From Eubacterium sp. CAG:274 (GTDB taxonomy: Bacteria; Bacillota; Clostridia; Lachnospirales; CAG-274): a DNA stretch of 64,000 bases. The stretch spans positions 16,614 through 80,613 of the forward strand of contig FR888502.1 of NCBI GenBank assembly GCA_000432155.1, written 5' to 3'. Each line of letters starts with the position of its first letter. Positions within the stretch are counted from its first letter, which is position 1. Under the pieces are notes generated by a model. The model did not search any database and had not been told where the DNA came from. It saw nothing but the letters and a program-made list of their open reading frames with translations. Positions 367 through 64,000 of this stretch are shown here, in pieces. A program made the position numbers and the translations under genes.

Positions 367-1537
367 TCAGGGCTTTAGAGGTGTATTCAAAAATGGACTT
401 ATGTCTGCAGCCTCAATTATTATAGTTAGTGCCTGTGTATTTACAGTTATTCTTTCTCTTAGTATTATGGTTAATGTTGACTATGTATTAAATCAGATTG
501 AGTCTAATGTAGGTGTTACAGTTTTCTTAGGCAATAAGCCTACAGATGCGCAGGTAAAAGTCTTGCAAAAGAAAATAGAAGAAATGCCTAATGTAACAAA
601 GGTTACATACATTTCCCAACAAGGTGCTTTGGAAAAAGCAAAGAAAATGTGGGATACTGATACACTTGACGGCTTGAAAGAGGATAATCCTTTCCCTAGG
701 TCTTTAGATGTACAGGTATCTGGCATAAGTCATCAGAAAGATGTAATTGCAAGAATAACTAAATTACAACAGGAATTTGAGAACCAGATAGTAAATGGCG
801 AGGTTGAAACAGTAGCAGAAACAACTACTATTGACCCAGCTCAGGCAGCTAAAGCAGCAGTAAATAATGCTGTTAAGGAGGCAGGTTCTCAGCCAACAAC
901 TACTAAGACAGCTCTCTTAGATAAATTAACAGGAACTGTTGAAGTACAGGCAGAGGGAACTTCTGCAACACCAGTAACTGAGGGCTTACCTACACCAGCT
1001 ACTATTCAGCAGGAAAATAATGAACCTGTTACAGTAAATAATGCACCTAAAATTGGTGATGCCGATTATGAGTATCAGGGAATTGAGTCAATTCGCCACG
1101 CACAGCAGTTGACAGATACTCTTATGGCTATTGATGCAATATTTAAAATAGTATCAGTTGTTATTATTGCAATTCTTGCAATTATCTCTATTGGTATTAT
1201 TATGAATACAATTAAACTTACAGTTTTCATTAGAAAAAATGAAATTGGTATTATGAAGTATGTCGGTGCTACAGACTGGTTTATACGCTGGCCTTTCATT
1301 GTAGAGGGTGTTATAATTGGTCTTATTGGTGCTGCTATTCCATCAGTTATTTCATGGCTTAGCTATGATAGAATTGTAGACTACTTCAATACTCACATAA
1401 GCGTGTTAAATACTCTTGTGTCATTAAAGAGTGGTAGTGAAATATTCATAGTAACAATACCAGTTGCACTTTTAGTTGGTGCATTATTGGGTGCTGTGGG
1501 AAGTATAACTTCTGTAAGAAAGCACCTTAGAGTATAA
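335..1537 (+). CDS. ftsX: Cell-division permease-like protein FtsX, with a large low-complexity extracellular loop
   Basis: I place the start at the internal ATG ([16 protein letters not shown]) rather than at 308. That start matches the FtsX N-terminus and overlaps the ftsE stop, as is typical. The product has 4 TM helices at the C-terminus. Confidence 0.85.
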   Translation: MKLRTWKYYISQGFRGVFKNGLMSAASIIIVSACVFTVILSLSIMVNVDYVLNQIESNVGVTVFLGNKPTDAQVKVLQKKIEEMPNVTKVTYISQQGALEKAKKMWDTDTLDGLKEDNPFPRSLDVQVSGISHQKDVIARITKLQQEFENQIVNGEVETVAETTTIDPAQAAKAAVNNAVKEAGSQPTTTKTALLDKLTGTVEVQAEGTSATPVTEGLPTPATIQQENNEPVTVNNAPKIGDADYEYQGIESIRHAQQLTDTLMAIDAIFKIVSVVIIAILAIISIGIIMNTIKLTVFIRKNEIGIMKYVGATDWFIRWPFIVEGVIIGLIGAAIPSVISWLSYDRIVDYFNTHISVLNTLVSLKSGSEIFIVTIPVALLVGALLGAVGSITSVRKHLRV

Positions 1538-1627
1538 AAAGTTTGCCGTTATAACGGTGTGTTTTTTGGGGGAATAGTCATATTTTTATGTATGATGTTT
1601 TCCCCTTTAGTTATGGAGTGAAAATTT

Positions 1628-2947
1628 ATGTTAAAAAAATTGGTATCGGGATTATTGACAGTATCTCTTACATTGGCTTTTGTTGGTGTAGCAGATGCAG
1701 CGTCAGTATCTCAGTTACAGAAACAGAGTTCGGCATTTAAAAATAAGATAAGCTCTGTTCAAAGTCAGATTAATTCCACAAAACAGCAGAAAGCCTCTAC
1801 TCAGTCAGAAATTCAGGAGCTTGATAGACAGCTTGCATCTGTTCAGGCTGAGATTACACAGCTTAATACAAAAATTCAGGAAACAACTGCTAACCTTAAT
1901 AAATCTCAGCAGGAACTTAAAGAGGCTATTGCTACAAGAGAGGCTCACTACAATACTCTTAAAAAGCGTATTAGAGTAATGTATGAGTATGGTAATAGTG
2001 GTTATCTTGAGGCACTTTTGTCTTCAGATAATTTCTCTGATTTTATAACTCGTCTTGAGTATACTAACAAACTTGTAGAATACGATAACAAGGTTCTTAA
2101 AGATTATACTCATTCAGAAGAAGTAATAGCTACAAATGTTAAGACTATTGCGAAGGATAAGAAACAAATAGAGGATATGAAGGCTGAACAGGCTAAGAAA
2201 CAGCAGATTTTGGATAACAATATTGCTAGAAAAAATCAGATTGTAAAACAGCTTGATTCTAACCAAAGTACTTATGAGGCACAGATTGCCGACTTACAGC
2301 AACAGGATGCCAATGTTCAGGCACTTATTCAAAAAGCAGAGGCAGAGGCAAAGGCTAGAGAGGCAGCAGCAGCCAAGGCAAAGGCTGATGCAGCAGCAAA
2401 AGCTAAGGCGGCTGCACAGGCAGCAAAGGCTAAGAGTAGCTCAAGCTCAAGGACAAAATCAAGTACAAGGTCTAAGTCATCAAGCTATAATACTGGCTCA
2501 AGTAATACATCTGGTGGCTCAAGCTCTGCTACTGTATATAGTAGTAATGGTAAGCATTATCAGTACCCAATTCCAGCTTATAATGGCTATAAGCCAAACT
2601 CTGGATATGGTTACAGGTCATCACCTATTGCCGGTGGTACAGAGTTCCACACAGGTGTTGACTTAAAGGCTACACTTAACACAGATGTAATCGCCGCTGA
2701 AAGTGGTACAGTTATTTATGCTGGTTGGAGAGGTGGCTATGGTAAGTGTGTTATTATTGACCATGGCGGTGGATATAGTACACTTTACGCACACAACAAT
2801 GTATTAAAGGTTTCTGTTGGTCAGACTGTTCAAAGAGGACAGGTTATTGCTGGTGCAGGTACAACTGGTTATTCTACAGGTGTTCATTCTCACTTTGAAG
2901 TAAGAATAAATGGTCAGCATACAAATCCAACAGGTTATATTTATTAA
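1628..2947 (+). CDS. Coiled-coil M23 family peptidoglycan endopeptidase (EnvC/PcsB-like partner of FtsEX)
   Basis: Signal peptide, then a long Q/K/E-rich coiled coil and an Ala/Ser-rich linker. The C-terminal M23 domain has HTGVD and HSHFE motifs. Confidence 0.85.
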
Positions 2948-2952
2948 TATTT

Positions 2953-2990
2953 GGGGACACAGGGCAAATGCCTTGTGTCCCTTTTTTGTT
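2953..2990 (+). terminator. Intrinsic terminator after the M23 peptidase gene
   Basis: GGGACACAGGG-N7-CCTTGTGTCCC stem followed by a T-run. Confidence 0.6.
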
Positions 2991-3039
2991 ATAAAATTTT
3001 TAAGAAAACTTGAATTTAACTGGCATTTAATGTTTTTAC

Positions 3040-3068
3040 TTGTAAATATTGAAAAATTGTACTATAAT
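3040..3068 (+). promoter_or_regulatory. Sigma-A-type promoter (TTGTAA-17-TATAAT)
   Basis: -35 TTGTAA, 17-nt spacer and a perfect -10 TATAAT lie about 80 nt upstream of the 3149 start. Confidence 0.35.
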
Positions 3069-3148
3069 ATACTTTAATTAAAAGTGTGTGTAAATTTATA
3101 GTTAATGAGTTTTTGTGCCTTAGTTACAAAGACAAGAGGAGTTTTTTT

Positions 3149-5347
3149 ATGAACAATAAACTTATACTAAATATAGTAATTGTGTATTTTGTAATTTTAA
3201 GTATAGTGCTTGTATTTCAGATTTCAAAGAAAAAAGATGACATTTCAGCACCTACTACTTCAAATCAGGTTACATCAGAGGATAGACTTGATAACGCAGT
3301 TGTTTTCAATTTAGGAAGTCCTGTAATTTTAGTAAACAAAAAGCAGACCCTTTTGGAAAAAACTGATTCATCACAAGTACCTGTTGTTAAGGGCGAGAAT
3401 GTTTATGTGCCTTTAAGTTTCTTTAAAACAGCTTATGGTGCTAGTGTAACAGGAGATGCAAATGCTCCAAGTGCAACAATAAGAATGAACAACAAAGCAC
3501 TTGTTATGGATAGCGAAAATGCTAGTATTGTTGATAACACAAGGGAAAAGAAATTAGATTATAATATAAAGATTTTTGCGGATAAGGGCGTTGACTATGT
3601 TCCAATAACTGTTTTTGCTAATGCCTTTAATAAATATCTTTATTATTATAATGGTATGGTTATTGTATCTAATCAGGAAAATGCTTTTACAAATGAAGAA
3701 AGCACAGAGTTTATACAGAATTTAAGAACACAGGTTAATGACTTGCCTTATGTTGCTACAGAGGAAAATTTAAGGGAAATTACTAATACAAGTGACAAAG
3801 ATGAACTTATTGATAAAATTGGACAGGCTGTTGGTAACAATAGTCAGAACAATGATAACATCAATGTAGCAGGACTTTTACAAAAGGACAGAGAAGACCT
3901 TATTAAAAGCGATGATACTTATATGTATTGTGCTACAGATGAAAGTGTAAATATTTTAGATTATACTAATGGCTTAAAGCATATTTCTGCTATTAAGTTA
4001 GATGCAGGATTTAAGCCACAGAAAATAGAATTGGAAAATAATACACTTGTTGTTGTAGGTAATTTAAAGGAAAACAATAGTGAAGTAGAAACTGGAGAAG
4101 ATTCTCAAAGGGACCCAGATACAGAAAAGGCTATTGTTTATGTTTATGATGTAACAAATGTAAATGCACCTACTCAGAAAAGAAAGGTTGCTGTAGATGG
4201 ATATGCTGTAGACACATCATTTGAAGGAGATTTTGTGTACTTAGTTGCTAATTCATCAGTATTTGATAATTACAAAGAGGGTCATTTTGTTGCACCATCT
4301 TATACAGATAGTGCCAATGGCGATGCTGTTACTATAATGGACTTTAGCAATATGCAGTATTTCCCTGAAATGGGTGGGGATAGCTACACAGTTGTTATGG
4401 CTATTAATATAGCAGATACAAAACAAGCTACTTCAGCAAAATCTTTCCTTTGTGCTGGAGATAATATATCATTGTTTGGCAGTAATCTATATGTTGCCAA
4501 AAATAGATATACAGCTTTTGATAGTTCAGATAAAACAGAAAATACTAGAATTTATAGATTTTCACTTGCCAATGGGGAATTTACAAGAAATGCCTATGGT
4601 GAGGTAAAGGGACACCCTGTTGATAACCATTCTATAGACGAAAATAATGGTTATGTAAGGGTTGTAACAAGTAATGTTGAGGGCAAAGAAAAGAAGATTG
4701 TAAATAGTGTTTATGTTTTAAACAACAATATGGAAATAAGTGGAGAGGCTACAAAGGTGGCAAATAATGCAAATATTAGTTCTGTTATTTTAACAGAAGA
4801 TAAAATTTATTTAACACCAAAGGAAAAAGGCGAACCAATTTATACAGTCGATATGTCTAATCCACTTAATCCATCAGGTAACGGTATATTGAAATTGTCA
4901 GACGGTAACATTATGCTTTATCCTTACGGAGAAGACCAAATCGTGACTGTTGATAATGGTGGGGATAAGCTCAAGATTAATGCTTTTGATATTTCAAGCA
5001 AGGATAATCCTAAACTCCTCTATAGTCAGGAATTAGGTGGAAGTAATATTTCTTCTTCTGTATTTGAAAATCCACAGGCATTTATGTTTGATACAGAAAA
5101 GAATATATTTGTATTGCCAGTTACTATTAAATCAGAAGAAGATGGCAGTGTAACATTTAATGGGGCGTATATTTATAGTATCTATATGGACGAAGGTTTT
5201 GAAAGACTTGGAGCTTTCTCAACAGAAGGAAATATAGAAACTATATTTAAGAAAAAAGGTAAACTCTACTGTGTAACCAACAGAGGTATCAGTCAAGGTA
5301 CTTTTGCTGAACCAGATAAAATGGTAGGGGTTAAATTTATTAATTAA
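3149..5347 (+). CDS. Secreted or membrane-anchored protein with copper-amine-oxidase-N-like stalk repeats and a beta-propeller-like body
   Basis: I place the start at the ATG after the AAGAGGAG RBS (MNNKLILNIV..., TM anchor). Motifs YVPLSFFKTAYGASV and DYVPITVFANAFN are typical of the CAO-N fold. A long Asn/Asp/Thr-rich beta-rich region follows. Confidence 0.5.
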   Translation: MNNKLILNIVIVYFVILSIVLVFQISKKKDDISAPTTSNQVTSEDRLDNAVVFNLGSPVILVNKKQTLLEKTDSSQVPVVKGENVYVPLSFFKTAYGASVTGDANAPSATIRMNNKALVMDSENASIVDNTREKKLDYNIKIFADKGVDYVPITVFANAFNKYLYYYNGMVIVSNQENAFTNEESTEFIQNLRTQVNDLPYVATEENLREITNTSDKDELIDKIGQAVGNNSQNNDNINVAGLLQKDREDLIKSDDTYMYCATDESVNILDYTNGLKHISAIKLDAGFKPQKIELENNTLVVVGNLKENNSEVETGEDSQRDPDTEKAIVYVYDVTNVNAPTQKRKVAVDGYAVDTSFEGDFVYLVANSSVFDNYKEGHFVAPSYTDSANGDAVTIMDFSNMQYFPEMGGDSYTVVMAINIADTKQATSAKSFLCAGDNISLFGSNLYVAKNRYTAFDSSDKTENTRIYRFSLANGEFTRNAYGEVKGHPVDNHSIDENNGYVRVVTSNVEGKEKKIVNSVYVLNNNMEISGEATKVANNANISSVILTEDKIYLTPKEKGEPIYTVDMSNPLNPSGNGILKLSDGNIMLYPYGEDQIVTVDNGGDKLKINAFDISSKDNPKLLYSQELGGSNISSSVFENPQAFMFDTEKNIFVLPVTIKSEEDGSVTFNGAYIYSIYMDEGFERLGAFSTEGNIETIFKKKGKLYCVTNRGISQGTFAEPDKMVGVKFIN

Positions 5348-7716: not shown

Positions 7717-8072
7717 AATTGTTTATAGGTGGAAATTCTCAAGGTCATAATGACTTGGCAATAAAAGCATATAATGGTATAATAGCTGATGGAAAAGAAG
7801 ATAGCATTGAAAGCATTGAAAATGCAGATGTTATTGTTAATTATCACGAGTTTGTCAGAAAAATAATGGAAAATGGAAAAGACCCTTTGGAATTTTCTCA
7901 AAATATTAATGCAAAGGCTGTTGCCTGCGATGAAGTAGGCTGTGGCGTTGTGCCTATGGATAAAAAGCAGATTTTATACAGAGAGGCTGTAGGCAGAAGT
8001 TGCTGTATATTGGCAGAAAGAGCAGAGAGAGTTACTCGTGTTATTTGTGGAATCGGAGTGATTATTAAATGA
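7710..8072 (+). CDS. CobU-like protein with a degenerate P-loop (truncated paralog)
   Basis: The C-terminal 50 aa (CDEVGCGVVPMDKKQILYREAVGRSCCILAERAERVTRVICGIGVIIK) align with the CobU C-terminus. The N-terminus reads FIGGNSQGHND in place of a GxxGxGKS Walker A. Confidence 0.5.
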   Translation: MLKLFIGGNSQGHNDLAIKAYNGIIADGKEDSIESIENADVIVNYHEFVRKIMENGKDPLEFSQNINAKAVACDEVGCGVVPMDKKQILYREAVGRSCCILAERAERVTRVICGIGVIIK

Positions 8073-8638
8073 AAATTACTTTAATAAGACATGGCAGAAC
8101 AATAGGCAATGTAAAAGGCTGTTTTAACGGAGTAACAAATGACCCCCTTTGTGATGAGGGTGTGGAAACAATAAAGGAGTATGTGGAAAAAGGCATTTAT
8201 CCGGAAGTAGGAATAGTTGTTTCAAGTCCACTAAAAAGGTGTTTGCAGACTTCTAACTTGATTTATCCTCAACATAAGCCTATAGTTGTGGATAATTTAA
8301 GAGAAATCAATTTTGGGGATTTTGAAAACAAGACTCATTTGCAACTTGAAAATAACCCAGACTACATACGCTGGATAAAGTCTAATGGCACAAGTGATAT
8401 TCCTAATGGAGAGAGTTTTAAGGCTTTTACAGACAGATGTGTAAAGGGTTTTAAAGAGGCTGTAGATGTATCTAAAAATAGTGTAAATTCAGCTTTTGTA
8501 ATTCATGGTGGAACTATGATGGCATTACTTACAGCTCTTACTGGAGAGAACTTTTACACAACTGTGCCTAAAAATGGCTTAGGTTTTGTTATTAACTGGG
8601 AAAATAATGAAGTAAAGGATTTAAAAACTTTGGTGTAA
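8069..8638 (+). CDS. cobC: Alpha-ribazole phosphatase (histidine phosphatase family)
   Basis: Phosphoglycerate-mutase-family RHG motif (LIRHGRT); located inside the cob cluster. Confidence 0.75.
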   Translation: MKITLIRHGRTIGNVKGCFNGVTNDPLCDEGVETIKEYVEKGIYPEVGIVVSSPLKRCLQTSNLIYPQHKPIVVDNLREINFGDFENKTHLQLENNPDYIRWIKSNGTSDIPNGESFKAFTDRCVKGFKEAVDVSKNSVNSAFVIHGGTMMALLTALTGENFYTTVPKNGLGFVINWENNEVKDLKTLV

Positions 8639-8640
8639 TT

Positions 8641-9588
8641 ATGGATATTCTTTTGGGATTTATACTGGATACAATAATTGGCGACCCTTATAAACTGCCA
8701 CATCCTATTAGATGGATTGGCAGTTTTATTAGTATACTTGAAAAACTGTGTAGAAAAATTGCAAAAAGCAATACTATGCTTATGATACTGGGAGCAATAC
8801 TTGTTTTTATTGTTGTTTTTGTTTCTGGAGGTATTACATTATTGGTGCTTAAATTAGCCTCTTTCAATAAGTATGCCTATTTAATAGTTTCATCTGTTAT
8901 CTGTTACTATATGCTTGCCGGAAAGTCACTTAAAACAGAAAGTATGAAAGTTTATAAGGCTTTTGAAAACAATGATACAGAGGGTGCTAGAAAGGCTGTT
9001 TCAATGATAGTCGGCAGAGATACACAGTCTTTAACGAAAGAGGGTATTATAAAGGCAGCAGTAGAAACTGTGGCAGAAAATTCATCAGATGGTGTTGTTG
9101 CACCTTTGATTTATATGCTTATTTTTGGACCTGTTGGTGGAGTTGTTTATAAGGCTGTAAATACAATGGACTCTATGATAGGCTATGTAGAGGAAAAGTA
9201 TTTTTATATAGGTAAATTTGCTGCTAAATTAGATGATGTATTAAATTATATACCGGCTAGAATATCTGGAATATTGGTTATTATATCAGCTTTTATATTA
9301 AGATATGACTATAAAAATGCTTTTAGGATTTTTAAAAGAGATAGAAGAAAACACGCAAGTCCTAATTCAGCTCAAACAGAGTCAGCTATGGCAGGAGCTT
9401 TAGGTGTACAGCTTGCTGGCGATGCAACATATTTTGGTGTTGTTCATAAAAAGCCTTACATAGGGGATAAAAAAAGAGAAATAGAAAACGAAGACATAAA
9501 GAGAGCAAATGACATAATGTATACAATGACAATCATTTGTCTTGTAGTAGGTCTTGTAATAAGGAGTGTGGTAATGTGGCTAAAGTAA
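8641..9588 (+). CDS. cbiB: Adenosylcobinamide-phosphate synthase
   Basis: N-terminus [25 protein letters not shown] is characteristic of CbiB/CobD; membrane protein. Confidence 0.9.
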
Positions 9589-9590
9589 TA

Positions 9591-11648
9591 ATGGTACAGG
9601 GAACAATGTCAAATGCCGGTAAGAGCATTATAACTGCTGGGCTTTTGAGAGTTTTTGCACAAGACGGATATAAGGTAGCACCTTTTAAATCTCAAAATAT
9701 GGCATTGAATTCTTTTATTACAAAAGAGGGTTTGGAAATGGGTAGAGCACAGGTTGTACAGGCTGAGGCTGCTGGTGTTGAGCCTGATGTGTTAATGAAT
9801 CCTATACTTTTAAAGCCTAATTCTGATACAGGTTCTCAGGTTATAGTTATGGGTAAGCCTATAGGAAATATGAAGGCTAAAGAGTATTTTAAATACAAAA
9901 AACAGCTTATTCCCACAATAAAAGAGGCATACAATAAATTAGCGGAAAAGTATGACATTATTGTAATAGAGGGTGCAGGTTCTCCGGCTGAAATTAATTT
10001 GAAATCTGACGATATTGTAAATATGGGTATGGCTGAAATGGTTGATGCCCCAGTTATACTTGTAGGAGATATTGATAGAGGTGGCGTTTTTGCACAGCTT
10101 TATGGCACAGTTGAACTATTGCCTTACAATGAGAAAAAGAGAATAAAAGGTATAGTTATAAACAAATTCAGAGGAGATAAAGCTATACTTGAAAATGGCA
10201 TTACTATGCTTGAAAAGAAATGCCATACTCCTGTTGTTGGCGTTGTGCCTTACGGAAATATAGATATTGATGACGAGGACAGTTTGGCTTCAAGACTTGA
10301 AAATAAAACTGTAGGGGCAATAGATATTGCTGTTATAAGATTGCCTAAGTTATCAAACTTTACTGATTTTTCTCCTTTGGAACAGTATGGTATGAGATAT
10401 GTTTCAAATGTAAAGGAATTGGGAAAACCAGACTTAATTGTACTTGGTGGCACTAAAAATACTATTGCCGATATGAAGTGGCTTAATGAAACCGGCTTAA
10501 AATCAGCTATACAGAAATTGGCTGAAAATGGTACAGATATTTTTGGCATTTGTGGTGGCTATCAGCTTATGGGTCAAAAGATAACTGATAGTGAGGGTGT
10601 TGAAAATGGTATTGACACTATAGAAGGTCTTGGTCTATTGCCTGTAGAAACTGATTTCTATATGGAAAAGACTACAAGACAGGTTACAGGTGTAGCCCAT
10701 AATGGGGAAAAAATAACAGGCTATGAAATACATCAAGGTCAAAGTGTAGTAAAGGGCGGACAGGCTTTTTCTGAAATTGAGGGTAGAAAAGAAGGTTGTG
10801 TTTTAAATAACTGTGTTGGCACTTATGTTCATGGTGTCTTTGACGAAACCGGCTTTAGAGAAAGTTATATAAAGAAAATATTTGATAAAAAGGGTATTTC
10901 TTTTGATGTAAAAACTATAGATATAGAGGAATATAAAAACAGTCAATACGATAAATTGGCAGACATTATTCGTGAAAATATGGATATGGACAAAATATAT
11001 GAAATATTAGAGAATAAGGAAACTGACTATACTCCACAATTTGTACTTCCAAAGGATATTGAGGCACGAAGTATGGAAATTATAGAAAGTGAAATGATTA
11101 CAGAAGTGCCAGAAGAGTATAAGCCTATTGTAAAAAGGGCTATACATACTACAGCCGATTTTGACTATGAAACAAGTTTGTATTTTTCACCAAATTGTGT
11201 AGAACAGGCTAGAGAGGCTATAAAAAGAGGAGCGTCTATAATTACTGATACCAATATGGCTAAGGCCGGCATTAATAAGAGAGTTTTAGGTAAATATGGT
11301 GGAGAAGTTTTGTGTTTTATGGCTGATGAGGATATTGCCAAAAGAGCAAAGGAAAATGGCACTACAAGGGCTGTTGCCTCTATGGAAAAGGCGTCAGAAT
11401 TGGAGGGCGAATATATTATAGCTGTTGGTAATGCACCAACTGCCCTTATAAAGCTAAAGGAATTAATAGAAGAAAACAGAATAAAACCTGTACTTATAAT
11501 TGCTGTGCCTGTAGGTTTTGTAAATGTGGTCGAGGCAAAGGAAATTATAAGCAAGTGTAATGTGCCAGTTATAGTAGCAAGAGGAAGAAAAGGTGGCAGT
11601 AATTTGGCTGCGGCAATTTGTAATGGTATATTGTATGGTATAGAGTAA
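9591..11648 (+). CDS. cobQ: Cobyric acid synthase fused to precorrin-8X methylmutase
   Basis: The N-terminal ~490 aa are CobQ: [12 protein letters not shown] start, with a glutamine amidotransferase region [10 protein letters not shown]. The C-terminal ~210 aa are CbiC/CobH ([11 protein letters not shown]...[15 protein letters not shown]). There is no stop between the two parts. Confidence 0.85.
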
Positions 11649-46426: not shown

Positions 46427-46428
46427 TA

Positions 46429-46464
46429 AAACAGCCGATACTGAAAAGGGTATCGGCTGTTTTG
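46429..46464 (+). terminator. Intrinsic terminator after mfd
   Basis: AAACAGCCGATA-N10-TATCGGCTGTTT followed by a T-run. Confidence 0.6.
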
Positions 46465-46522
46465 AAATAAATGTAAGAAAAAGGAAAACACAAAATAAAT
46501 AAAAGAAAAAATTATAAAAATA

Positions 46523-47390
46523 CCAAGGAGTATACAATACCTTTCTCTTACTGTAGTTATAATATACCATATACAAAGTCCAATAAATGGGATTTTAATA
46601 ACAAAAATAAAAAAATATTAAATAATCTAAAAAAGTCGATGTTCAAAATAACATCGACTTCTTTAGATATAAGAGAAAGGAAGTGTAACTAATAAAAATA
46701 AAAAATATACTAATATAAAATCTATATGAAAAATAATGAAGTACTATTATGAATTAAAAAAAATAACTAAAACCTCAAGGAGTATTTAGGTCCTTTCTCT
46801 TACTGTAATTATAATACCACATACAAAGTCCAATAAATGGGATTTTAATAATAAAAATTAAAAAAATGAAAAATATTAAATAATCTAAAAAAGTCGATGT
46901 TCAAAAAGACATCGACTTCTTTAGATATAAGAGAAAGGAAGTATAAGTAATAAAGATAAAAACTATAACTAATAAAAATCTATATGAAAAATAACGAAGT
47001 ACTATTATGAATTAAAAAATAACTAAAAACTCAAGGAGTATTTAGGTCCTTTCTCTTACTGTAATTATAATACCACATACAAAGTCCAATAAATGGGATT
47101 TTAATAATAAAAATTAAAAAAATGAAAAATATTAAATAATCTAAAAAAGTCGATGCGTTAATTTGTTCTGAAAGGTAAGAGAAAGGGAAAAAATAAATAA
47201 ATTAACTATAAAAAATTTTGTGTAAAGTTACACAAGAAAGGATAAAACATATTACAAACAAAAATAAATAAAATACAATACAAAGGAGTACTTATTACCT
47301 TTCTCTTACTGTAATTACAATATATCACATACAAAGTCCAATAAATGGGATTTTATCAATAAATTTTAAAAATTTATACTGTTTTTTCAT
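46523..47390. repeat. Tandem array of about 3.4 copies of a 250-256-bp non-coding unit
   Basis: Units begin at 46525, 46777, 47033 and 47283 (AAGGAGTA...). Each carries CCTTTCTCTTACTGTA...ACATACAAAGTCCAATAAATGGGATTTTA. Units A-C carry the inverted partner TAAGAGAAAGG; only A and B carry the perfect 10-bp hairpin GTCGATGTT-N-AACATCGAC, which is truncated in C. No ORF is conserved across units. Confidence 0.8.
47325..47390 (-). other. 21-codon sORF (MKKQYKFLKFIDKIPFIGLCM) with a strong RBS, overlapping the last repeat unit
   Basis: GGAGG 6 nt upstream of the ATG, immediately after the mtnN terminator. It is intact only in the partial fourth unit. Confidence 0.15.
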
Positions 47391-47402
47391 ATTAAACCTC
47401 CT

Positions 47403-47467
47403 AAAAATAAAAAAAGACAACAAATGTACTTGTCCGTCTGACATTGGACAAGTGACATTTATTGTCT
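47403..47467 (-). terminator. Long composite intrinsic terminator after mtnN
   Basis: Outer 13-bp stem AGACAA(C/T)AAATGT plus inner 8-bp stem ACTTGTCC/GGACAAGT, followed on the minus strand by TTTTTTTATTTTT. Confidence 0.5.
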
Positions 47468-47521
47468 TCTATAATCAATTATTTAATTTTTTACATTTTA
47501 AAACAAAATGTTGTCAATATA

Positions 47522-60208: not shown

Positions 60209-62155
60209 TTACCATCTTTTAGTCTTGTTTTTGATTTCTTCAGTAATTTCTTTGATGAAATCTTCAACAGCATAAGAGCCTAAATCTTCGCCCTTACATC
60301 TTACAGAAAGAGTATTGTCGGCAGCTTCCTTTTCGCCTACAACAACAATATAAGGTACTCTTTCGTTTCTTGCTTCTCTAATCTTGTAACCAATCTTTTC
60401 TGCTCTTGAGTCAGTTTCTACCTTGATACCAGCAGCCTTAAATTCAGCTTCAACCTTAGCAGCATAGTCAGCATACTTATCAGAAATAGGAAGAAGTTTA
60501 ACCTGAACAGGTGCAAGCCAAGTTGGGAAGTGACCTGCATACTTTTCAATAAGAAGGGCAAGTGTTCTTTCATAGCAACCTAAAGAAGTTCTGTGAATGA
60601 TGTATGGTCTCTTCTTCTGACCGTCCTTATCAATGTAGTACATATTAAACTGTTCAGCAAGTAACTGGTCAATCTGAATAGTAATAAGAGTATCTTCCTT
60701 ACCGAATACATTCTTAATCTGAATATCAAGCTTTGGACCATAGAAAGCAGCTTCATCAATACCTACAGTATAAGGAACACCTAAATGTTTAAGGATTCTT
60801 TCCATAGCACCCTGTGCTTCGTCCCACTGTTCAGCAGTACCAATGTACTTATCAGTATTGTTAGGGTCCCACTGAGAAAATCTAAAGCTAACATCTTCGT
60901 ATAAGCCTACAGTCTTTAACATAAATGTAGCAAGTTCAAGACAACCCTTGAATTCTTCTTCTAACTGGTCTGGTCTTAAAATTAAGTGACCTTCAGAAAT
61001 AGTGAACTGTCTTACTCTGATAAGACCGTGCATTTCGCCTGATGCTTCATTTCTGAAAAGTGTAGAAGTTTCGCCATATCTGCAAGGTAAATCCTTGTAG
61101 CTGTGCTGTTCTGCATTGTATACCATATACTGGAATGGGCAAGTCATAGGACGGAGAGCAAATACTTCGTCGTCCTTTTCTTCATCGCCAAGAACGAACA
61201 TACCGTCTTTGTAATGGTCCCAATGACCACTAATCTTGTAAAGGTCACTCTTAGCCATTAAAGGAGTCTTAGTTAATAAATAACCTCTCTTTTGTTCTTC
61301 GTCTTCAACAAATCTCTGTAAAGTCTGAACAATTCTTGCACCCTTTGGCATAAGAAGTGGAAGACCCTGACCAATAACATCAGTAGTAGTGAATAAGTGC
61401 ATTTCTCTACCTAACTTGTTGTGGTCACGAAGTTTAGCTTCTTCTCTTGCTTTTATAAATTCGTCAAGGTCAGCAGCCTTTGTAAATGCAGTAGCGTAAA
61501 TTCTAGCAAGCATTTTGTTCTTTTCGTTACCTCTCCAGTAAGCACCTGAAGAACCAGCTTCGTTAGTAATCTTAAATGCCTTAATTGGCTTAGTGCTCAT
61601 AAGGTGAGGGCCTGCACAAAGGTCAGTAAAGTCACCCTGCTTGTAGAAAGAAATAACAGCATCTTCAGGAAGGTCTTCAATAAGCTCTACCTTGTAAGGT
61701 TCGTCCTGTTCTTTCATAAACTTGATAGCTTCTTCTCTAGGAAGTTCATATCTTTCAATAGGAAGATTTTCTTTAACAATCTTCTTCATTTCTTTTTCGA
61801 TGTCAGCAAATTCTTCATTTGTAAAAGGCTTTCTGTCAAAATCATAGTAGAAACCTTCATCAGTTGCTGGTCCAATAGCGAGCTTAGTTTCTGGATATAA
61901 TCTCTTTACAGCCTGAGCCATAATGTGAGATGCTGTATGTCTGTAAGCCTTTTTACCCTCTGGAGAGTCAAAAGTACAAATTTCAACTGTGCAATCCTTT
62001 TCAACTGCATCTCTTAAATCTGCAACTTCGCCATCAATTTTGCCACAACATGCGTTTCTAGCAAGACCTTCGCTAAGGTCCTTTGCGATTTCAAGAATAG
62101 TAGTACCCTTAGCATATGCTTTAGAAGTACCGTCTTTTAATGTTACATTAACCAT
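60209..62155 (-). CDS. thrS: Threonine--tRNA ligase
   Basis: TGS domain, second additional domain, class II core and anticodon-binding domain; 648 aa. Confidence 0.95.
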   Translation of the reverse strand: MVNVTLKDGTSKAYAKGTTILEIAKDLSEGLARNACCGKIDGEVADLRDAVEKDCTVEICTFDSPEGKKAYRHTASHIMAQAVKRLYPETKLAIGPATDEGFYYDFDRKPFTNEEFADIEKEMKKIVKENLPIERYELPREEAIKFMKEQDEPYKVELIEDLPEDAVISFYKQGDFTDLCAGPHLMSTKPIKAFKITNEAGSSGAYWRGNEKNKMLARIYATAFTKAADLDEFIKAREEAKLRDHNKLGREMHLFTTTDVIGQGLPLLMPKGARIVQTLQRFVEDEEQKRGYLLTKTPLMAKSDLYKISGHWDHYKDGMFVLGDEEKDDEVFALRPMTCPFQYMVYNAEQHSYKDLPCRYGETSTLFRNEASGEMHGLIRVRQFTISEGHLILRPDQLEEEFKGCLELATFMLKTVGLYEDVSFRFSQWDPNNTDKYIGTAEQWDEAQGAMERILKHLGVPYTVGIDEAAFYGPKLDIQIKNVFGKEDTLITIQIDQLLAEQFNMYYIDKDGQKKRPYIIHRTSLGCYERTLALLIEKYAGHFPTWLAPVQVKLLPISDKYADYAAKVEAEFKAAGIKVETDSRAEKIGYKIREARNERVPYIVVVGEKEAADNTLSVRCKGEDLGSYAVEDFIKEITEEIKNKTKRW

Positions 62156-62484
62156 TTTAATTCCTCCATAAAAAATAACTGTGGTAAATAAGATTGGGGC
62201 AAATTTACCTAAAAATGTTTTTTACGGGTATAAAAAAATCCCTGCCAAAGCAGGGACGATAATAACCGTGGTTCCACCCAAATTGCACATAAAAGTGCCA
62301 CTTGTCAGCCTTTAACGGAGCAAACCGTGCTTTATTAAAGCCACTCAGAGGTGGTTTTCATAGTTGTCATGCAAGGATAATCACAGCACCATATCCCTCT
62401 CTGAATACATATTGACAAAAATTACTGTCCTCATCACCGTTTTCAATTCAAATTTAATTATATCATCAAAATTTTAAAAGTCAA
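62156..62484 (-). promoter_or_regulatory. T-box leader (thrS)
   Basis: On the minus strand: promoter TTGACT-16-TATAAT; T-box sequence AATTTGGGTGGAACCACGG; terminator GTCCCTGC-TTTG-GCAGGGA plus U7. Confidence 0.8.
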
Positions 62485-62605
62485 GAATATTTAAAAACAT
62501 AGTTAATTCTTTTAATTATGGCATAGTTGAACAAGCTAAAAAAGAGTAAAGATTGTTTACTCAGAATAAATTCGTTAAGGATAGGATTTTATAGTTAAAT
62601 TATTT

Positions 62606-62877
62606 CAGGGCATTTTAGGGCAAGTTTTAGGGAAAATTATAGAGTGATTTTTTTTTAACGCAAAGTGGCTTGTTTACTGGGGTTGTAGGCTGTTTTGAAA
62701 TTTTTAGGGTGAAATTTATGATTTTTTTATACTATATTATATTTTATATATTTATTTTTAATAATTTTATTTATAAAAAATATGCCCTAAATTCCCTAAG
62801 TGGCTTATTTACTGGCTTTCGGGACTTTTATTTTGCCCTAAACATGCCCTAAACATGCCCTGAACTTGCCCTAAAAA
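62606..62877. repeat. Convergent arrays of TTTTAGGGC (left, 3 copies) and GCCCTAAA (right, 5-6 copies, four with exact 11-bp phasing) flanking a >90% AT core
   Basis: Left copies at 62611, 62625 and 62703. Right copies at 62783, 62834, 62845, 62856 and 62867. A second direct repeat AAGTGGCTT(G/A)TTTACTGG occurs at 62662 and 62798. Confidence 0.7.
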
Positions 62878-62994
62878 TTTTTTATAAAAAACACAAATAA
62901 ATTAATAAATATTAAATTTAGCATAATATTTGAAATATAATATTGTAAGCCTAATTTTTTTGGGATATAATTACAGAAAAAAGGGGGTTGAAGT

Positions 62995-63768
62995 ATGAAA
63001 GTTGCTATGTGTCAGACAAATATTATATGGGAAGACAAAGAGAAGAATATAGAAAAATGTGTTGAATTTATAGAACAGGCAAAAAAGCACAACATAGAAT
63101 TAATGCTATTTCCTGAAATGAGTTTTACTGGTTTTTCTATGAATATTAATAATACAAAAGAGAATTATAATTATACAGTACAAAAGATTTCTAAAATAGC
63201 AAGGGAAAATAAAATTGCTATAGGATTTGGCTGGGTTGAAGAAATGGGGCATAAAGCCAGAAATAAGTATACAGTAGTCAATTCAGAGGGGAATGTTTTG
63301 GCTGACTATGCAAAAATACACCCTTTCAGCTATAGTGGAGAGGATAAGTATTTTGTTTCCGGAGCAAGTCTTTCAAAGTTTAAGTTTGATAATTTTACAA
63401 TAGGTCTACTTATTTGTTATGACTTGAGATTTCCGGAAATTTTTCAGGCACTTTCAAAGGAATGTGATGCAATAGTTGTAGCTGCCAACTGGCCAGCATC
63501 TCGAAAAAAACATTGGAAAACTCTTTTAAAGGCTAGAGCTATTGAAAATCAAGTATACATTTTTGCCATAAATTGTGTAGGTAAAGTTGGAGATTTAAGA
63601 TACTCAGGGGATAGTTGCATTATAAATCCTAATGGCGATGTGCTTTCAAGCCTTTCAAAAGTAGAAGGTATGGTAATAGGAGATATTACAAATGATGTAA
63701 AACAGTATAGAAGTGATTTTCCTACTAGAAAGGACAGAATACCGGAATTTTATAAAACTCTATTTTAG
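62995..63768 (+). CDS. Carbon-nitrogen hydrolase family protein (nitrilase/amidase superfamily)
   Basis: E-K-C triad context: FPEMSF (Glu), K, and LLICYDLRFPE (Cys); 257 aa. Confidence 0.8.
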   Translation: MKVAMCQTNIIWEDKEKNIEKCVEFIEQAKKHNIELMLFPEMSFTGFSMNINNTKENYNYTVQKISKIARENKIAIGFGWVEEMGHKARNKYTVVNSEGNVLADYAKIHPFSYSGEDKYFVSGASLSKFKFDNFTIGLLICYDLRFPEIFQALSKECDAIVVAANWPASRKKHWKTLLKARAIENQVYIFAINCVGKVGDLRYSGDSCIINPNGDVLSSLSKVEGMVIGDITNDVKQYRSDFPTRKDRIPEFYKTLF

Positions 63769-63779
63769 GATGTGATTTT

Positions 63780-64000
63780 TTGAACAAGGGTTATGGACTT
63801 GTATTAAATGGTGGTGGTGCAAAGGGTGCTTACCAAATAGGGGTTTGGGCTGCTTTGCGTCAACTGGAACTATATGACGAAATAACAGCTGTTTCAGGTA
63901 CTTCTGTAGGTGCTTTAAATGCACTATTAATAGGGCAAGACGATTTTGACAAGGCTATAAATGTGTGGAAAACTATAAAACAGGAGGATATAACACCTTT
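63780..64000 (+). CDS. Patatin-like phospholipase (3'-truncated at the window edge)
   Basis: Oxyanion-hole motif GGGAKGAYQIG and nucleophile elbow GTSVG. TTG start; runs off the window. Confidence 0.65.
   Translation, partial: MNKGYGLVLNGGGAKGAYQIGVWAALRQLELYDEITAVSGTSVGALNALLIGQDDFDKAINVWKTIKQEDITP

Follow-up and report, generated by a model that had tools for sequence, protein, structure and literature searches.

The 64-kb stretch of Eubacterium sp. CAG:274 DNA analysed here (contig FR888502.1, called the window below) contains, between thrS and a gene of the CN_hydrolase family, an intergenic region of 839 bp (62156-62994) that encloses a non-coding block of short opposed repeats around an AT-rich core. 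This repeat block, designated here as the element, and its relation to the replication origins of phage-type primase-helicases are the subject of this report. An earlier note, made from the letters of the window, had placed the repeats between the promoter of the thrS leader and the C-N hydrolase/patatin gene pair, which is the context that we find. The limits of the element were set by pairwise alignments with the corresponding locus of a sister species, and its length of about 382 bp has to be read with boundaries that are good only to about 15 bp because the flanks are AT-rich. The features of the element are listed first and those of its flanks after them; retrieved contigs and loci are designated by numbers preceded by L.

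62524..62905, no strand: whole element, non-coding, about 382 bp, delimited against the sister locus L362
62603..62633, minus strand: distal left iteron array, TTTCAGGGC, ATTTTAGGGC and AAGTTTTAGGG, three sites at spacings of 10 and 12 bp, pointing to the core
62663..62680, plus strand: left copy of a second module, AAGTGGCTTGTTTACTGG (the '..TTACTGG' module), of a direct-repeat family
62703..62709, minus strand: inner left iteron TTTAGGG, which abuts the AT core
62711..62783, no strand: AT core of 73 bp with 95.9% A+T, presumably where the DNA unwinds; its end reads TATAAAAAATAT
62785..62800, plus strand: inner right iteron pair, CCCTAAAttCCCTAAG, spaced by 9 bp
62798..62815, plus strand: right copy of the second module, AAGTGGCTTATTTACTGG, of the same direct-repeat family
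62817..62825, minus strand: degenerate single inverted site, TTTCGGGAC, which corresponds by pairwise alignment to TTTAGGGAC in the element of genome HRGM_3419, described below
62834..62877, plus strand: distal right iteron array, four TGCCCT(A/G)AA units exactly 11 bp apart
62457..62484, minus strand: thrS promoter (TTGACT, 16 nt, TGnTATAAT), outside the element and upstream of the T-box leader, kept in the sister species
62943..62971, plus strand: promoter-like site of the CN_hydrolase/patatin operon, outside the element, kept in the sister species
60209-62155, minus strand: thrS, the gene to the left of the spacer
62249-62446, minus strand: T-box leader of thrS, Rfam match of 112 bits
62995-63768, plus strand: CN_hydrolase gene, followed by the patatin gene

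Read from the sequence, the element carries ten CCCTAAA-type sites, of which four lie on the left (TT(T/C)AGGG at 62604, in the form TTCAGGG, and at 62614, 62626 and 62703) and six on the right (CCCT(A/G)A(A/G) at 62785, 62794 as CCCTAAG, 62836, 62847, 62858 as CCCTGAA, and 62869); the two sets are opposed and face each other across the AT core. The earlier note had counted three repeats on the left and five or six on the right, a correct count to which the inner left site at 62703 can now be added. The last four right-hand copies, which it had described as exactly 11 bp apart, are indeed separated by 11, 11 and 11 bp; these units are of the TGCCCTAAACA type, and Tandem Repeats Finder (TRF) gives a period of 11, 3.8 copies and 90% matches. 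The segment 62715-62790, announced as more than 90% A+T, measures 92.1%, and the inner sites on either side of the core are 81 bp apart. The second direct repeat that had been reported once in each arm, the 18-nt AAGTGGCTT(G/A)TTTACTGG at 62663-62680 and 62798-62815, is identical at 17/18 bases. The description of iteron-like arrays around a meltable AT core, predicted to bind a protein, is consistent with all of these features.

Seven of the nine exact CCCTAAA/TTTAGGG copies of the whole window are found within 262 bp at the element; in 300 composition-preserving block shuffles, the largest 300-bp cluster consisted of one copy (213 shuffles) or two copies (87 shuffles). This clustering is far beyond chance, and both a motif scan and the profile search presented below give a single copy of the element in the 64 kb. 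The motif repeated at an 11-bp period is not specific alone, because a scan of the genome collection for CCCTAAA triples at this spacing returned more than 119 loci from many phyla, most of them unrelated 11-bp tandem repeats. A scan of viral sequences for the second repeat, AAGTGGCTTRTTTACTGG, gave 9 matches without further likeness to the element, and one for TATAAAAAANNTGCCCT gave 120 matches, apparently by chance and none with three or more iterons nearby. No known RNA family was found in the element by Rfam, which was searched with E up to 1 over 61500-64000 and at the gathering score across the whole window, and which recognised the thrS T-box only.

The sister species (L362) has a hydrolase that is 80% identical and the same gene order thiI, tyrS, thrS, hydrolase, patatin, ACT and hom. 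Its thrS/hydrolase spacer measures 407 bp versus 839 bp in the window species. Pairwise alignment of the two spacers matches the T-box and the promoters of thrS and of the hydrolase gene, and leaves the block at about 62524-62905 without a counterpart in the sister spacer, in which no TTTAGGG or CCCTAAA site was found. The element is therefore not a conserved operator, since the sister species keeps the genes and both promoters without the repeat block. Two suggestions of the earlier note are answered by the same comparison: an operator serving the hydrolase/patatin pair finds no support in a species that has the genes and their promoters without the block, and a hydrolase/patatin island bounded by the repeats is ruled out by an identical synteny from which the repeats are absent. 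As none of the more distant hydrolase homologs (57-58% identity) is syntenic with thrS, the choice between an insertion here and a loss in the sister species is not formally settled, and the independent sites of the orphan copies in other genomes favour insertion over loss.

The same arrangement recurs beside genes for primase-helicases. It can be stated as a grammar with three parts: sites paired at 8-9 bp and inverted next to the core, the core itself, which is AT-rich and about 70-120 bp long, and outer arrays with a spacing of 10-11 bp. This grammar was found about 0-700 bp from a D5_N/DUF5906 helicase gene (P4-type, superfamily 3 or SF3) in 12 distinct and unrelated loci of phages, satellites and islands. 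The loci are L044, L224, L241, L367, L368, L372, L053, L069, L387/L403, L393, L402 and the phage DT1; those listed below were gathered by viral and metagenome scans with the unit of the window, plus homologs of the helicases. The inner sites of the helicase-linked members are 71-119 bp apart, and inner pairs at 8-9 bp are present also in L044, L224, L367, L372, L053, L402 and DT1. The AT core of the window element aligns with the AT cores of L044 and L224, and a single inverted site occurs at the same relative position in L044, L224 and L367. Contexts and iterons of members of this set are as follows.

L224: phage contig, helicase operon; iteron CTTGCCCTAAA
L241: helicase 71% identical to that of L224; iteron TTGCCCC
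L367: helicase homolog; iteron TTGCCCT
L368: helicase homolog; iteron TTGCACC/ATACACC
L372: satellite-like, with a serine recombinase, a repressor and a PriCT/D5_N/DUF5906 gene, then the element; iteron GTGTAT
L053: order helicase, element, ssb; iteron of the CCCT(A/T)AA type
L069: order helicase, element, CHC2 primase; iteron CCTCCCTNAA
L393: partial helicase with the element 200 bp downstream; iteron TGCCCT
L402: temperate siphophage with Gp157, AAA_24, DUF669, primase-helicase, a 270-bp gap and RecU; iteron TGCCCTTAA

In the gap of L402, the '..TTACTGG' module stands on both sides of the core, in the form CCAGTAATTACTAGGG. The helicase family of this phage is common, with homologs in 1,164 phage records. 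Across the set, the iteron changes along with the divergence of the helicase (TTGCCCT, TTGCCCC, TTGCACC, GTGTAT and GTTACT). A search for related loci returned nothing with the L044 helicase and, with the L224 helicase, its own contig and one relative at 71% only, and the divergence within an alignment of five helicase sequences was too high for use. In the L224 group, a small AbrB/MazE-like gene (weak PF04014 match) heads the helicase operon and faces the origin-like element (L224:8686-8900 region, L367:2325-2486 and L368:2304-2498), and its product could be a second element-binding protein, as a candidate.

A nucleotide profile (nhmmer) of five helicase-linked elements (L402, L224, L367, L241 and L044) has one significant match in the window, at 62730-62878 (E 5.4e-9), and none in 20 block-shuffled windows or in the sister locus. 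When the copies of a second gut species, presented below, were added to the profile, the match covered 62660-62883 (E 1e-20).

Related elements were found in two other genomes. The Clostridiales metagenome-assembled genome HRGM_3419, brought to light by the scan of the genome collection mentioned above, contains at least 5 copies of a 480-bp core which are more than 97% alike, and the right half of this core matches the window element feature by feature, with, in order, TTAGGG, the AT core, TATAAAAAA..CTAAAnTCCCTAA, GGGACTTTT and four CCCTAAA units at 11 bp. One copy (L044) lies directly 3' of a gene (930-3395) for an 821-residue Zn-ribbon/Toprim/D5_N/DUF5906 primase-helicase, as assigned by Pfam; no other open reading frame (ORF) was found in the 930 bp upstream of this gene, and secDF lies downstream. 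Orphan copies of the same genome are located between core genes (LysR/rpoC and cysK/lipoprotein). HRGM_3419 (L030, L052, L107, L067 and L044) carries also a second dispersed family of about 190 bp, 75-84% alike and made of tracts of ATTAG(G/C)-like motifs, which flanks some of the origin-like cores as inverted pairs, so that these cores look as if they had been inserted into the centre of a palindromic repeat.

In the second gut species, two tandem elements lie between recD2 and an amino-acid ATP-binding cassette (ABC) transporter operon (L377:6440-7050, minus strand), on contigs of which one reaches 294 kb, and the same locus was seen in L374-L376, L395 and L398. Their iterons are TGCCCC in copy A and TGCCCTAA in copy B, and both copies have '..TTACTGG'-type modules. 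Over 210 bp that include this module, copy B and the window element share 76-77% identity (E 1e-40). The right arm of copy B is found again, identical over 55 bp, directly after the stop codon of the L387 helicase gene (61-2193), which encodes a 710-residue Toprim/D5_N/DUF5906 protein and is located next to ligA. In L403, an 89% identical helicase gene (8001-10124) comes after ligA, and only the first 48 bp of the array are present before the end of the contig. Both the L387 and the L403 contigs stop inside the element; a break of assemblies at the L403 array is what is expected of a repeat. The primase-helicase genes of L387, L403 and L044 are apparently solitary beside core genes, and each has an origin-like element directly behind it.

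Orphan copies are accordingly present in three genomes, and the two others besides that of the window also hold a helicase-linked copy. This bears on a condition stated in the earlier note, that repeats absent from close relatives with conserved flanking genes, and for which no binding protein is found, may be slippage products without function. The absence, the first half of this condition, is indeed observed in the sister species. The conclusion of slippage does not follow from it, because homologous elements of the same grammar exist elsewhere, mostly beside D5_N/DUF5906 primase-helicase genes.

Several known systems share parts of this organisation. The origins of the Staphylococcus aureus pathogenicity islands (SaPIs) consist of 6-12 short iterons around an AT-rich centre, with at least 2 iterons per side in opposite directions; the iterons, each of five or six nucleotides, come directly after the rep gene, and the origin is bound and melted by Rep, a self-loading SF3 helicase whose own winged-helix domain recognises the iterons without a separate loader (PMC9371898). 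The window element resembles the origins of SaPIs and of phage-inducible chromosomal islands (PICIs) in its two opposed sets of short iterons around an AT-rich centre, as does L372 in its layout within a satellite-like context. It differs from SaPI origins in the size of its unit (7-9 nt), in an extra '..TTACTGG' module on each side and in the absence of an adjacent rep. The earlier note had taken the 11-bp spacing as the mark of a dimeric DNA-binding protein; by analogy with SaPIs (PMC9371898), the loading of a multimeric SF3 helicase would fit better.

A second comparison is offered by phages of Streptococcus thermophilus. According to PMC6356513, which cites Foley 1998 and Lamothe 2005, a non-coding element of 302 bp from phage Sfi21 acts as an infection-activated origin and, when supplied in trans, confers a copy-number-dependent phage resistance called 'PER'. 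In the S. thermophilus phage DT1, Orf36 (DUF5906) is 24% identical over 364 residues to the L402 helicase (P0244; E 1e-24), and the 253-bp non-coding gap that follows Orf36 holds AGTTACTtAGTTACT, an AT core of about 70 bp, GTAACTAAGTAACT and distal copies. We take this gap to be the published DT1 ori, on the basis of the record together with the cited papers. Like these origins, which belong to modules with the orf504 or Orf36 primase-helicase, the window element is non-coding and of similar size (about 250-300 bp). Unlike them, it is chromosomal with no phage genes around, whereas the phage origin stands directly after its own helicase gene, and the iteron of DT1 is GTTACT instead of TGCCCTAAA.

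In phage P4, a D5_N-type primase-helicase, alpha, binds both ori and crr; the octamer iterons are direct and inverted, and crr is a second cluster that acts at a distance from ori. The window element has in common with P4 the type of primase-helicase initiator that we consider for it and iterons in direct and inverted orientation; the iterons themselves and the host phylum are different, and both P4 sites lie inside the P4 genome.

Considering these likenesses together, we propose that the block 62524-62905 is probably an orphan copy of the origin of a phage, satellite or island primase-helicase of the D5_N plus DUF5906 type. An origin of this class is expected to have opposed iterons with two or more per side, an AT stretch of roughly 60-100 bp between the innermost iterons, a likeness to helicase-linked elements and a cognate rep or primase-helicase gene alongside; its cognate helicase would bind it specifically, melt it without ATP and, when supplied, support replication from it. 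The window element has four iterons on the left and six on the right, a core of 73 bp, and both the profile match and the match at 76-77% identity; it possesses the grammar of the class and is profile-homologous to the helicase-linked copies. A cognate gene alongside is wanting, and the element is classified as an orphan and not as a regular member because no helicase gene adjoins it.

Under this proposal, the helicase would itself be the initiator: its DNA-binding domain would recognise the opposed iterons that flank the AT stretch, and the helicase would assemble on each side, melt the AT core at 62711-62783 and load itself, whereupon replication would start. The block would have entered the thrS/hydrolase spacer as discrete foreign DNA, by insertion. 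It would act only in trans, when a phage, satellite or island supplies a helicase of the matching (C/A)TGCCCTAAA specificity, and could then be bound, and possibly fired, in situ.

Several observations weigh against this proposal. A helicase homolog is absent from the 64-kb window and from 10 kb on either side, as judged by the Pfam context and by tblastn with the L044 and L224 helicases as queries against the window and the strain contigs L001-L010. The neighbours of the element are instead thrS, tyrS, CN_hydrolase, patatin and hom. The 10 kb on each side are of housekeeping type, with prmA, an rsmE-like gene, thiI, a gene for an iron-containing alcohol dehydrogenase (Fe-ADH), tyrS and thrS upstream, and, downstream and in this order, the hydrolase, patatin, ACT, hom, aspartokinase and the trp operon. 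The inner left iteron has only a degenerate partner 9-10 bp upstream, which reads TTTTGAAA and leaves one good site. Repeats of TGCCCTAAA at 11 bp are found also beside putative integrase genes and tRNA ends in many prophage contigs, for which reason the iteron motif cannot by itself identify such an origin. No array was found within 2.5 kb in three helicase loci that are more distant (L369-L371), and in the L224 phage group the element adjoins, in addition, terS-like and AbrB/MazE-like genes; that the helicase binds these elements is suggested by their recurrence across contexts, and it is the candidate binding protein. Some strains have decayed left sites (e.g. TTTAGGA) or only two right units, and variability within the locus is highest in the outer arrays. 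The element is a candidate origin from its sequence, and a present-day origin function is unproven.

Variation among strains is the evidence on which a related and simpler explanation has to be weighed, namely that the block is derived from an origin and is now a dead relic, no longer used by the proteins of today and drifting, with slippage as the source of the changes in repeat number. The element is present in all ten strain contigs retrieved, and the right array contains 2, 3 or 4 copies among the strains. Nucleotide diversity, computed across 11 sequences (a small sample), is 0.000 in the T-box leader, 0.013 at the third codon positions of the flanking genes, 0.008 in the inner sites plus AT core and 0.055-0.066 in the outer arrays and the segments between arrays. 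A relic would account for this last value, which is 4-5 times the third-position diversity, for the outer left sites decayed in L001, L002, L004 and L007, and for the right array of 2-4 units; the degenerate inner left partner and the lack of a nearby helicase are compatible with it as well. Against it, the inner sites and the AT core are invariant in the aligned strains (8 sequences for the inner left iteron), and the inner sites and core together fall below the third-position level (0.008 < 0.013, in this small sample). Moreover, the complete architecture is kept in 11/11 strain sequences and in the GTDB representative, and in the two other genomes orphan copies occur together with a helicase-linked copy, at an identity of more than 97% in one case and without any difference across the 55 bp open to comparison in the other. 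The contrast between an invariant core and hypervariable arrays could stem either from relaxed constraint together with slippage or from selection acting on specificity. A dead relic is, in our judgement, a distinct possibility, although the less favoured one.

A more ambitious version of the orphan-origin proposal, which we hold to be rather doubtful, is that orphan origins are kept and spread because they work, as a PER-style decoy or as an accessory start site. As a decoy, the element would capture the primase-helicase of an infecting phage, be fired in situ and starve the phage of its initiator. As an accessory site, it would be a chromosomal start site fired by a resident solitary primase-helicase, for which the ligA-adjacent gene of L387/L403 and the L044 gene beside secDF are candidates. 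If there were an arms race over initiator specificity, it could account for the two different iteron specificities of the tandem elements in the second species, for an invariant core next to hypervariable arrays in the window species, and for the four or more near-identical orphans of HRGM_3419. A literature search on natural orphan or decoy phage origins returned nothing relevant, which cannot show that none has been described.

Among explanations that do not involve an origin at all, the element could be a miniature non-autonomous transposon, in which the opposed arrays would be groups of transposase-binding sites at the two ends, an arrangement known from Tn7 and Mu, with the AT core as filler. 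The block is discrete and is present in one of two sister species, HRGM_3419 has at least 5 dispersed copies more than 97% alike with some nested in another repeat family, and assemblies of the second species break at the element, all of which a transposon would explain. Yet nothing convincing in the way of terminal inverted repeats or a clear target-site duplication was found at the block ends in the alignment with the sister species, no transposase is linked to any copy seen, and what recurs next to the copies is a primase-helicase gene, within phage replication modules in which a transposon end makes no sense. We consider this explanation unlikely. As dispersal needs some mechanism, mobility of the kind of a miniature inverted-repeat transposable element (MITE) may exist alongside an origin ancestry.

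The most serious alternative is that the repeats are arm-type sites of a tyrosine integrase, the element being an attP-like site, or the joined attL/attR of a mini-element without genes, with the crossover in the AT core. Such sites (lambda attP P/P' and those of P4-like tRNA elements) resemble the window element in their 10-11 bp repeats, in their two opposed arms and in their size of about 250 bp, and those at prophage ends have the 9-mer TGCCCTAAA in common with it. Arrays of the form TGCCCTAAA-NN-TGCCCTAAA are found in about 40 viral contigs, around 100 bp from the 3' ends of tRNA genes or near the contig ends of prophages; in L203 and L144 they lie directly 3' of ORFs that are tyrosine-integrase-like (as judged from the translation and not by Pfam), and in L092 an array is next to a tRNA. 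A restriction-modification insertion of 2.3 kb has also occurred right beside the element in some strains.

However, no integrase gene (Pfam) and no tRNA (Rfam, whole window) lies within 10 kb of the element, and the integrase-linked arrays, which adjoin int or tRNA genes, do not show inverted pairs of inner sites on the two sides of a core that is purely A+T and about 70-120 bp long. Furthermore, it is the helicase-linked profile that matches the window, L053, L069, L402 and DT1 place the grammar inside replication modules, and the restriction-modification insertion is flanked by a 91-bp duplication of the promoter region and not by the repeats. On these grounds, an attachment site is in our estimation even less probable than a transposon.

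The viral contigs in question (L183-L233 and others, GC 0.46-0.60) carry TGCCCTAAA(T/A)(T/A)TGCCCTAAA, and in others of them the array stands just before a terminator near the contig end; these roughly 40 higher-GC prophage arrays are probably arm-type integrase sites that use the 9-mer of the Clostridia iteron. As for the 2.3-kb insertion, it was observed in the strains L003 (7610-9909) and L009 between the repeat element and the hydrolase gene, at a point that corresponds to about 62994 of the window. It contains a 263-residue ORF, a 98-residue ORF and a 326-residue C5 DNA methylase (PF00145), and its flanks are a 91-bp direct duplication of the hydrolase promoter region (window 62904-62994). 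These features suggest that a mobile restriction-modification unit was inserted here and duplicated a long stretch of its target.

Regulation of the neighbouring genes was considered in a species-specific form, in which a regulator of the OmpR/PhoB type, or an AbrB-like one, would use the element as an operator or enhancer to control the CN_hydrolase/patatin operon or thrS. Winged-helix response regulators typically use direct repeats of 11 bp, the two promoters on either side of the element are divergent, and an AbrB/MazE-like gene adjoins the element in the L224 phage group, which would all speak for such a role. It is nevertheless very unlikely, given that these genes and the two promoters exist in the sister species where the element does not, that no regulator gene was found in the neighbourhood, that the homologous elements stand in unrelated gene contexts and that 65 bp separate the end of the right array from the -35 box downstream.

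We give still less credit to a packaging site, of cos or pac type, that would be bound by the small terminase subunit and from which a helper phage would package the adjacent chromosome. In L224, L241 and L367 the element is just upstream of a gene assigned to PHROG 606, 'terminase small subunit' (E 4e-9), but in L044, L053, L069, L372, L387, L393, L402 and DT1 it is the helicase gene that is adjacent and not terS, and in L402 the Terminase_2 gene is 4 kb away.

Finally, a plasmid-type iteron origin, a ParR/ParG-type centromere or a chromosomal oriC or terminus has next to no probability. Only the generic look of short phased repeats with an AT-rich stretch recommends it, a look shared with R1 parC/ParR and with Rep_3 iterons, in which phased short repeats (11 bp in parC) flank a central region. 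The repeats of parC are direct on both sides and lie beside parMR, as arrays of such centromeres adjoin a parMR/parAB-type operon and usually overlap its promoter, and plasmid iterons measure 17-22 bp, are direct and lie beside rep, unlike the 7-11 bp units of the window, which form opposed sets. The Pfam context shows no Rep, Par, integrase, ribbon-helix-helix (RHH) or helix-turn-helix (HTH) regulator, dnaA or dnaN gene within 10 kb on either side, which leaves the plasmid iterons, ParR/ParG centromeres, Spo0J-like sites and multimeric operators of the earlier note without a protein partner; the Rep/ParAB or RHH/HTH gene that it had envisaged just beyond 64000 is likewise not found within 10 kb downstream. 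A blastn search with 62480-62995 in 'distant' mode gave no match in PLSDB (72,556 plasmids) or INPHARED (50,697 phage records). The statement of the earlier note that the site is not a canonical oriC holds, as DnaA boxes (TTATCCACA, one mismatch allowed) are absent from 62400-63000, the GC skew undergoes no sustained switch, neither it nor the gene orientation changes as at an origin or terminus, and the genes keep the plus strand beyond 64000.

Two further observations concern other parts of the locus. The strains L005 (538-3427) and L006 have three extra GTPase-like genes (IIGP, MMR_HSR1 and dynamin-like), which the other strains do not have, upstream of the Fe-ADH gene at a position that corresponds to about 56 kb of the window. 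The region 46427-47521 of the window consists of 1.1 kb with few ORFs and about 27% GC and includes a tandem repeat (46540-47155) of a 256-bp unit in 2.4 copies with 93% identity, and related units can be followed by eye as far as about 47360. A promoter-like box and a hairpin terminator (AAGTCGATGTTCAAAA.ACATCGACTT) are present in each unit. No Rfam family matches the units, which may be tandem small-RNA or small-peptide cassettes.

The organism that harbours the element is a very common one in the gut, as 5,684 blocks of the assembly collection are indexed for its hydrolase protein. Over 4 kb, the window shares 96.9% identity with 'uncultured Eubacterium sp. UMGS758' (L042). To our knowledge, the origins of self-loading primase-helicases are known only in phages, satellites and plasmid-like elements, next to the gene of their initiator. 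Here, the origin module that we propose would stand by itself in a spacer that separates two core genes, in a species that is very prevalent in the human gut. It may be a fossil, a decoy or an origin fired by a helper. If such orphans were still bound or fired, they could represent a natural version of the engineered 'phage-encoded resistance', let helpers over-replicate and mobilise the neighbouring host genes, or constitute extra chromosomal origins. Even if the orphans are dead, it holds that discrete units of about 400-500 bp are the form in which origin modules move, and the iteron grammar can be used to find origins and to pair them with their helicases in uncultured phages.

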